A model generated the notes under the pieces. The model saw only the letters and a program-made list of their open reading frames with translations. It did not search any database and was not told the origin of the DNA. Shown here piece after piece: positions 27,401 through 28,113 of a stretch of DNA of 37,915 bases (its first letter is position 1; the number at the start of each line of letters is the position of its first letter). The DNA comes from a virus (taxonomy: Duplodnaviria > Heunggongvirae > Uroviricota > Caudoviricetes): positions 1 through 37,915 of IMG/VR virus record IMGVR_UViG_2913123054_000005, one strand, 5' to 3'. The translations under genes and the position numbers were made by a program.

Positions 27401-27790
27401 TCAGGCGGCTGCACCCGCCGTTTTCTCGTACTTACTGATAGTGATCTCGACCTTCCCTTCCGGGATAACCGGTCCCCACTCCACCAGCATTCTTTTCACC
27501 TGACTGTCGTCTTCCCACACACCCGCGTGGGTCAGGGCGTCAAACAGCGCCTTGTTATAGTTGTCCAGATCGCGGATCCGGTTATCCGGAGGAAACAACA
27601 CGATCTCCACTGAAGCAGGTGCCGACGTTGGTTTCGGCAGACGACGTAACTGCTCAACTATTGCTGCGCACGCCGCGCTCTGGAATTTTCGCCCCGCCGC
27701 GCTTATCAGGCTCTTACCAGCAAACGCCCCTTTGTTGGGGTGTCGCCAGTACGTGTTCACGCTGGGCGGGAAAGGCAGGATCAGCTTCAT
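27401..27790 (-). CDS. rusA: Holliday junction resolvase RusA
   Basis: 129 aa; RusA-like hallmarks (LPFPPSVNTYW..., DLDNYNKALFDALTHAGVWEDDSQV). Confidence 0.8.
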   Translation of the reverse strand: MKLILPFPPSVNTYWRHPNKGAFAGKSLISAAGRKFQSAACAAIVEQLRRLPKPTSAPASVEIVLFPPDNRIRDLDNYNKALFDALTHAGVWEDDSQVKRMLVEWGPVIPEGKVEITISKYEKTAGAAA

Positions 27791-28113
27791 ACTTTCAGGC
27801 CCCTCTTATGTAACCAGTGGGTTGCACGCAGCCTGGCGTTTTCCTCACCGGCAAGCAGTGAGCGGATAATCCCGACCGCCTCGCTGTCGTCGTCCTTCAT
27901 CGCAGTATGAAGCGTTATCCCCCGGGCCACGCCACGCTTTATCGTGATGACGCCTTTTTTCTCCAGTGCGCGAAGATGCTCCACCGCTGCATTCACCGAA
28001 CGGTATCCCAGCATGGTTGCCACCTCCTGATTGGTTGGCGGGAAGCCACGTTCTTTCTGATAAGAAATCAGCATATCCAGCACCTGCTGCTGGCATTGAG
28101 TTAACGTCGTCAT
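27787..28113 (-). CDS. LexA DNA-binding-domain-only protein (winged HTH, no S24 peptidase domain)
   Basis: 108 aa; N-terminal 70 aa track the LexA N-terminal domain pattern (LTxxQQxVLDxI...GxPPTxxExAxxLGxRSxNAAxEHLxALxKKGVI.IxRGxARGI.L); short C-terminal tail with no Ser/Lys dyad domain. Confidence 0.55.
   Translation of the reverse strand: MTTLTQCQQQVLDMLISYQKERGFPPTNQEVATMLGYRSVNAAVEHLRALEKKGVITIKRGVARGITLHTAMKDDDSEAVGIIRSLLAGEENARLRATHWLHKRGLKV

Follow-up and report, generated by a model that had tools for sequence, protein, structure and literature searches.

The only characterised phage protein that consists of a LexA N-terminal domain alone, and the closest characterised analogue of the protein described here, is gp6 of the Bacillus tectivirus GIL01, a phage-encoded, truncated LexA homologue of 66 amino acids (aa) that is limited to the winged helix. 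It acts in the switch to lytic growth, binds the palindrome GaCACAn nTGTGaC, which is unlike that of LexA, and activates a late promoter (PMC6182141). Here, this system and LexA itself are compared with a 108-aa LexA-like protein encoded on a Caudoviricetes prophage (IMG/VR record IMGVR_UViG_2913123054_000005, positions 1 to 37,915; the whole stretch of 37,915 nucleotides (nt) is called the window). The protein is a true LexA N-terminal winged helix without the S24 protease domain, and it belongs to a phage family kept under selection. It could plausibly act as an uncleavable binder of SOS boxes, a role suggested by its sequence and weighed below against a regulator with an operator of its own.

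The contacts by which Escherichia coli LexA reads DNA are well described. A review of the LexA-DNA crystal structure attributes base recognition of CTGT mainly to S39, N41, A42 and E45 (PMC11442139), an earlier summary adds E44 (PMC3091678), and the wing is credited with the rigid half-site spacing (PMC8565304). The free N-terminal domain keeps some SOS-box binding and repression, and its removal by ClpXP is needed for full SOS induction (PMC10584840), so that a stable protein made of this domain only is a credible repressor. Two LexA derivatives, the LexA(1-84) fragment and the lexA(Ind-) repressors, resemble the phage protein in having a LexA DNA-binding domain beyond further inactivation by activated RecA (RecA*). 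The fragment differs in its exposed C-terminal degron, which leads to ClpXP removal, whereas the phage protein ends in ...GLKV after a helical hairpin and is presumably stable; the Ind- mutants differ in retaining the LexA dimer domain. Other stand-alone LexA_DNA_bind phage proteins (BFVD matches and PHROGs 24920 and 3502) are, likewise, essentially a LexA winged helix of 65-150 aa, but most are without the conserved hairpin tail, and a tested function was found for none of them.

A LexA winged helix without the protease domain

A first-pass annotation, made from the letters alone, had proposed that the open reading frame (ORF) encodes a LexA-type winged helix that lacks the autocleavage domain, and had named profile search, alignment and structure prediction as the check on its fold. 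All three place the protein (MTTLTQCQQQVLDMLISYQKERGFPPTNQEVATMLGYRSVNAAVEHLRALEKKGVITIKRGVARGITLHTAMKDDDSEAVGIIRSLLAGEENARLRATHWLHKRGLKV) in the LexA family and not in another winged-helix family. In particular, Pfam PF01726 (LexA_DNA_bind) matches with E = 2.9e-19 and 69 bits (cutoff 23.7) over all of its model positions (1-65 of 65), and a search of solved structures returns only LexA among its top matches, including the E. coli LexA DNA-binding domain (1lea, 6.6e-16). Residues 1-69 of E. coli LexA align to the protein without gaps and in the same numbering, with 35 of 69 positions identical (51%); the homology is far beyond chance, although the earlier wording of a match 'nearly residue for residue' over the first 70 aa overstated it. 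An AlphaFold2 model, computed from a 38-sequence family alignment (mean predicted local distance difference test score, pLDDT, of 85), has the LexA topology, with helices at 6-22, 28-35 and 40-52 and a two-strand wing at 56-58 and 66-68. With Foldseek, residues 1-68 of the model superpose on DNA-bound E. coli LexA (3jso_B) with a root-mean-square deviation of 1.0 Å over 68 columns and 50% identity.

The chain ends at residue 108, and the S24 peptidase/dimerisation domain with its Ser119/Lys156 dyad is absent, as had been predicted; Pfam scans of the protein and of 38 family members found no Peptidase_S24 match. Against the NCBIfam lexA equivalog TIGR00498 the protein reaches 70.5 bits where the cutoff is 110.95, and it aligns only with model positions 1-91 of 203. 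With both the S24 domain and the equivalog cutoff failing, the protein stands outside the LexA repressors proper. The PADLOC defence-system models give it only a marginal winged helix-turn-helix match.

The recognition helix keeps S39, N41, A42, A43, E45, H46 and L47 of LexA, while P40 and E44 have both become valine. The core of the wing (G61, R64, G65 and I66) is also kept and varies little or not at all across the family, whereas the wing tip differs by two basic substitutions (V59K and S60R). The idea that a more basic head offsets the lost dimerisation was dropped, the net charge being +4 in both the LexA-like and the LexA domains.

A family-specific helical hairpin in place of the dimerisation domain

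The HMMER and hhalign alignments run past the LexA hinge to LexA residue 88. They pair SLLAGEE of the phage protein (A88-G89-E90) with RVAAGEP of LexA, which contains the A84-G85 cleavage site and E86, and by this alignment the start of the tail resembles what would remain of a lexA gene truncated directly behind its cleavage site. The AlphaFold2 model confidently predicts a two-helix hairpin for residues 73-103, with A88-G89 inside a helix (pLDDT about 90) and not in an extended loop. This hairpin is present in relatives of 40-50% identity from Cronobacter, Klebsiella, Enterobacter, Atlantibacter, Salmonella and Citrobacter prophages. Their C-terminal element of ~35 residues has the consensus EAVxLLRALLAGExxARxRAIxxLxxRG, in which A97 and L101 are invariant, A93 is conserved and the hydrophobic pattern is kept; the Ala-Gly pair is not conserved and is AN, VG, TR, DD, AE or ND in other members. 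No Pfam family matches the tail. Judging from the model, it is most plausibly a family-specific helical hairpin that serves as a dimerisation or partner-binding element, not a working cleavage loop. Self-cleavage is impossible because the protease domain is absent. The first-pass description of a 'short unrelated tail' thus holds for the missing S24 domain and not for the word 'unrelated', since the tail begins with an alignable hinge and Ala-Gly motif and carries a hairpin conserved family-wide.

A common and maintained phage family

The protein matches PHROG 362 ('transcriptional repressor') with E = 1.3e-59, residues 1-108 covering profile positions 1-106 of 106. It shares with this family a length within about 105-135 aa, a full-length match that includes the hairpin, the residues A97 and L101, and a position in the nin region. 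SfV orf42 and mEp460_046 are 98% identical to the protein, and database members 94-98%. The gene is present at 96-98.5% identity in 50 phage records, including SfV, SfII, SfIV, mEp460, cdtI and Shiga toxin 2c (Stx2c) phages, and in 41% of complete E. coli genomes (2233 of 5426), a single genome having as many as four copies. Members keep their full length and their tail even at 40% identity; together with this prevalence, this shows that the family is kept under purifying selection.

The gene is already catalogued and named. NCBI calls the protein 'LexA family transcriptional regulator', the exact sequence is public as an E. coli 'LexA family protein', and the mEp460 copy is annotated 'LexA DNA binding domain protein'. 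Its only mention in a survey of Stx phages is as an annotation, pham 237 with pfam01726 (PMC8136144). Stand-alone LexA heads are common in phages.

Several remote homologues (P0131, P0132, P0147, P0148, P0154, P0155 and others) have two LexA_DNA_bind stretches per chain with the helix SPNGVM[CTS]HL, and each may combine two LexA heads in a single-chain 'dimer'.

Position in the early-right operon

The early-right operon lies on the minus strand in the order cII-like, O-like, PerC-like, Dam-like methyltransferase, LexA-like, RusA, KilA-N, DUF968/HNH and Q (Table 1). The LexA-like ATG is preceded by a GGGAGA Shine-Dalgarno (ribosome-binding) motif. No convincing terminator was found on this strand between the immunity region and the LexA-like gene; from this and the operon position, we infer that the gene is delayed-early, unexpressed in the lysogen and switched on by induction or infection. 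In this it differs from lexA, which is autoregulated from an SOS-box promoter. A putative dam promoter is annotated within the upstream gene in the SfV record, and its -35 element is weaker in the window (TGGCGC versus TTGCGC).

The order methyltransferase, LexA-like gene, RusA recurs in the nin regions of mEp460, SfV, Cronobacter, Atlantibacter and metagenomic loci. The slot directly upstream of the LexA-like gene (window 28110-28796; around 4800-6000 in loci L005-L011) always holds a DNA methyltransferase, which belongs to the PF05869 Dam family, to the PF02086 D12 class or to an 802-aa fusion of C5 and D12 types. This slot may reflect positional or functional coupling, or may be a mere recombination hotspot.

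SOS boxes and the dinI gene of the prophage

Two LexA boxes had been noted upstream of a dinI-like gene at the other end of the prophage, and both are real and perfect. Both overlap the TTGACA promoter that lies immediately before dinI, and the window contains no other perfect CTGT-N8-ACAG site; sites with one mismatch occur at chance level (18 observed versus 12.3 ± 3.3 expected). Host LexA fully explains these boxes, and the homologous dinI region of VT1-Sakai is annotated as LexA-controlled.

The suggested connection between the LexA-like gene and these boxes did not prove to be a conserved one. SfV has a 98% identical LexA-like gene but neither dinI nor a promoter SOS box, and 31 of the 60 dinI carriers listed lack the LexA-like gene, so that an obligate partnership was rejected. 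Fifty phage records contain the LexA-like gene, and 29 of them are among the dinI carriers; this overlap comes largely from the near-identical Stx2c and mEp460-type lineages.

In SfV (locus L012, 34172-34191) and mEp460 (L001, 10597-10616), a further SOS-like box, TACTGTAAAAATAAACAGTG, which matches the consensus at 16/20, is found just within the 5′ end of a late methyltransferase gene that follows Q; a weaker version of the box occurs in a metagenomic locus (L008, 11136-11155). In SfV, it is the only well-matching SOS-like site; the late methyltransferase gene that carries it is absent from the window.

A sister clade with its own SOS-box promoter

Klebsiella and Enterobacter prophages carry an N-extended clade of the family, with members of 130-135 aa. 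The unit order is terminator, canonical SOS-box promoter, variable gene, phrog_1813 ORF, LexA-like gene, phrog_1212 ORF, DUF968, Q and lysis genes, and the terminator and canonical SOS-box promoter precede the LexA-like gene in all loci examined. The variable gene is dinI in Klebsiella (L002-L004, with the box TACTGTTTATTTATACAGTA), a full-length phage RecA homologue in L013-L015 and L017, each with an SOS box, and absent in L016. These copies look directly LexA-controlled in their expression, as far as their promoter sequences indicate, and the family keeps company with modulators of RecA, which is a recurring SOS theme.

The recognition helices behind these unchanged host-type boxes differ from one another (SSNAVLLH, SANAIAEH, SPNAALTH and SPNAAAEH), which argues that the boxes serve host LexA and that at least the LL and LT variants read something else. 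The sister clade thus ties the family to the SOS response, yet it also argues that SOS boxes are not the target of the family as a whole.

What the LexA head may read

The reading we tentatively prefer, at somewhat less than an even chance, is that proteins of this clade bind LexA-like operators of the CTGT type and can take the place of LexA once it has been cleaved. The gene would encode a delayed-early phage regulator that binds DNA and arose from a proteobacterial LexA by way of its N-terminal domain. The layout suggests that it is expressed from the early-right (PR) operon and translationally coupled to the methyltransferase and RusA genes, and from this operon the protein would appear only after loss of the prophage repressor or on infection. 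According to sequence and model, it would read DNA through an almost unaltered LexA head (S39, N41, A42, E45 and the invariant wing), probably as a dimer whose subunits are joined through wing contacts on DNA, through the C-terminal hairpin or through both.

Because the S24 domain is absent, RecA* should be unable to inactivate the protein as it does LexA. Autocleavage of LexA exposes a 'VAA' ClpX degron on the N-terminal fragment, which Neher et al. are said to have described in 2003; as LLAGEE stays internal in the phage protein and its C-terminus is ...GLKV, this route of removal should not apply. After destruction of host LexA, the protein would be a damage-proof stand-in at CTGT palindromes that re-closes part of the SOS regulon, possibly including the dinI promoter of its own prophage. 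The base-contacting residues, intact here and changed in gp6, count for recognition of a LexA-type operator.

A bolder version is unlikely, though not strongly so. In it, a RecA-proof surrogate LexA re-occupies SOS boxes and the induced phage thereby shuts down the host SOS response (recA, sulA, LexA-controlled antirepressors of rival prophages and its own dinI), while the SOS-box promoter of the sister clade, which drives dinI or phage recA together with the LexA-like gene, forms a phage-borne mini SOS circuit.

Several observations weigh against the recognition of SOS boxes. Besides P40V, the protein differs from LexA by R28N and at several wing-tip residues. Position 44 is Glu in 11 of 12 sampled full-length LexAs (with an S24 motif) and Val here, and it is non-acidic in nearly the whole family of N-terminal-domain-only proteins. 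Further, the recognition helix differs between clades at positions 42-45 (VE, TD, ND, AE, LL and LT); counts among sampled clusters are 70 for SVNAAVEH, 15 for SPNAATDM, 14 for SPNAANDH, 9 for SPNAAAEH and 7 for SSNAVLLH, and even close relatives in Citrobacter and Salmonella include A42S variants. All the enterobacterial hosts have the same SOS box, which argues against tuning of the whole family to a single SOS box. A different C-terminal element stands where LexA has its dimerisation domain, so that half-site spacing and affinity may depart from those of LexA. Neither the window nor SfV has a promoter-placed SOS box outside the dinI promoter, and literature searches aimed at the protein found no functional or experimental study of it.

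Many of the same observations would be expected of a private regulator that works as gp6 does, whose operator has drifted from the SOS box and which activates or represses a promoter specific to the phage or clade, leaving host SOS without any meaningful change. This alternative is doubtful but a real possibility. The precedent is gp6, and the loss of E44 family-wide, the diversification of helix positions 42-45 between clades, and the N-extended copies, in which the reading head varies while the apparently LexA-controlled boxes stay constant, follow the gp6 logic; the distinct C-terminal hairpin, as modelled, also implies another dimer geometry. The kinship with gp6 is remote, however: hhalign relates it to the family with a probability of 96.6% and 33% identity over 63 columns, and BLASTP of gp6 against the LexA-like protein gives no alignment with E <= 100, so that the protein is only a distant relative outside the range of close sequence similarity to gp6. 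Moreover, gp6 lacks the C-terminal hairpin and carries K, T and R where the family has N41, A42 and E45 (its Lys38 aligns with Asn41 here), which leaves the LexA contact residues intact only on the side of the LexA-like clade.

The search for an operator of its own also tells against a private regulator. No candidate was found upstream of dam, the intergenic palindromes of the window are mostly terminator-like, and no dyad stands at a consistent position around the LexA-like gene across nine loci of different clades. In gp6-type control, the operator would overlap the -35 element of a late promoter; no such dyad was found in the PR' region (24700-24760), where late control is by Q, and PR' regions are identical in loci with differing LexA-like helices, with no co-variation between the two. 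In addition, phages that differ in their immunity regions, Q types and antirepressor-like neighbours share the gene as a small travelling module, which makes a fixed phage target outside the module hard to place.

A DNA-metabolism accessory is a third explanation, an improbable one, in which the winged helix tethers or targets the methyltransferase, RusA and the DUF968/HNH protein to DNA or binds DNA structures, and in which the protein does not regulate genes by reading specific sequences. The fixed position between methyltransferase and RusA in spite of three methyltransferase families, and the presence of DUF968 downstream in all loci examined, are in keeping with such a role, as is a natural fusion (P0158, 240 aa) in which a LexA-like N-terminal domain is followed by the HNH region from the C-terminal part of DUF968. 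This fusion was rejected as strong evidence, being a singleton on one 402-kb contig that may be a one-off deletion, and other fusions with neighbours look like frameshifts or annotation merges. In the Klebsiella clade, neither methyltransferase nor RusA adjoins the LexA-like gene, and the rusA and DUF968 genes occur too in lambdoid prophages without it. Invariance of S39 and N41 combined with diversification of the recognition helix is typical of proteins that read specific sequences. Readings other than those listed here have, in sum, a slim chance.

Docking of LLAGEE in the S24 site of host LexA or phage CI, as a trans-cleaved substrate that would still be SOS-sensitive or as a pseudo-substrate inhibitor of repressor autocleavage, is very improbable. 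The profile alignment does set A88-G89-E90 on LexA A84-G85-E86, and Kim and Little reportedly described in 1993 an intermolecular cleavage by the C-terminal domains of LexA and CI, but the motif lies in a confidently predicted helix and its Ala-Gly pair is replaced in other family members. Finally, a decaying remnant of a captured lexA gene, to which the apparent truncation just after the cleavage site would point, is effectively refuted by the conservation of full length and tail across genera at 40-50% identity, the thousands of intact copies and the tight translational coupling in a functional operon.

Implications

If the protein does bind SOS boxes and re-imposes LexA-type repression during prophage induction, some 40% of sequenced E. 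coli strains, including lysogens of Shiga-toxin and Shigella serotype-converting phages, would carry a damage-insensitive LexA surrogate that is switched on with prophage induction. This would bear on the duration of SOS in induced cells, the cross-talk of co-resident prophages, the induction of Stx phages and the interpretation of SOS-targeted antibiotic adjuvants. If, instead, the operator is private, the family would provide a second, Gram-negative case of the gp6 principle, in which a captured LexA head is reused as a phage regulator.

Other features of the prophage

Table 1. Positions of the LexA-like gene, its parts and the surrounding features (window coordinates, except for the sister-clade units, which are numbered within their own loci)
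Feature	Position	Strand	Remarks
LexA-like ORF	27787..28113	minus	ATG start, 108 aa, stop codon included; LexA N-terminal-domain-only product
Winged helix-turn-helix domain, residues 1-69	27907..28113	minus	AlphaFold2 pLDDT about 90; 1.0 Å to 3jso; 51% identity
Recognition helix, residues 39-52	27958..27999	minus	SVNAAVEHLRALEK here, SPNAAEEHLKALAR in LexA; alignments
Beta-hairpin wing, residues 56-68	27910..27948	minus	AlphaFold2 and alignments
Family-specific tail, residues 70-108	27790..27906	minus	acidic linker, then helical hairpin (H73-88 and H93-103)
Vestigial LexA-like A88-G89-E90 motif	27847-27852 (A88-G89)	minus	hidden Markov model/profile alignment
Two perfect SOS boxes, CTGTTTATCCATACAG and CTGTATACAAACACAG	2227-2242, 2255-2270		CTGT-N8-ACAG scan; candidate target only
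dusA	1-1038	minus	prophage integrated beside dusA
Integrase	1127-2224	plus	ends 3 nt before the first of the two tandem SOS boxes
DinI-family gene	2286-2534	plus	downstream of the two SOS boxes
Q antiterminator	24776-25528	minus	late genes under Q
DUF968/HNH protein	25542-26537	minus	
KilA-N protein	26539-27381	minus	downstream of RusA
RusA Holliday-junction resolvase	27401..27790	minus	downstream; start overlaps LexA-like stop (ATGA)
Dam-like N6-adenine DNA methyltransferase	28110..28796	minus	upstream; stop overlaps LexA-like start (ATGA)
PerC-like gene	28763-29257	minus	
O-like replication gene	29254-30246	minus	
N-extended clade units	L002-L004 5385-6393; L013-L015 2530-4393; L016 3555-4408; L017 335-2231		

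The tail, head and lysis genes of the window are on the minus strand, and the integrase and dinI genes adjoin the tail genes, not an early-left operon. Just downstream of Q (24640-24775, minus strand), a late promoter-like sequence, TTGCAT-17-TAAGAT, is followed by a strong terminator hairpin (24668-24647); going by sequence, this is the classic PR'/tR' arrangement. A 108-aa ORF annotated nearby (24368-24694) probably has its true start at an internal ATG near 24625.

The KilA-N protein has a local match to the PADLOC candidate defence model PDC-S22 (E = 3.6e-7). In other clades, its slot holds Rha/ANT-type antirepressor-like proteins.

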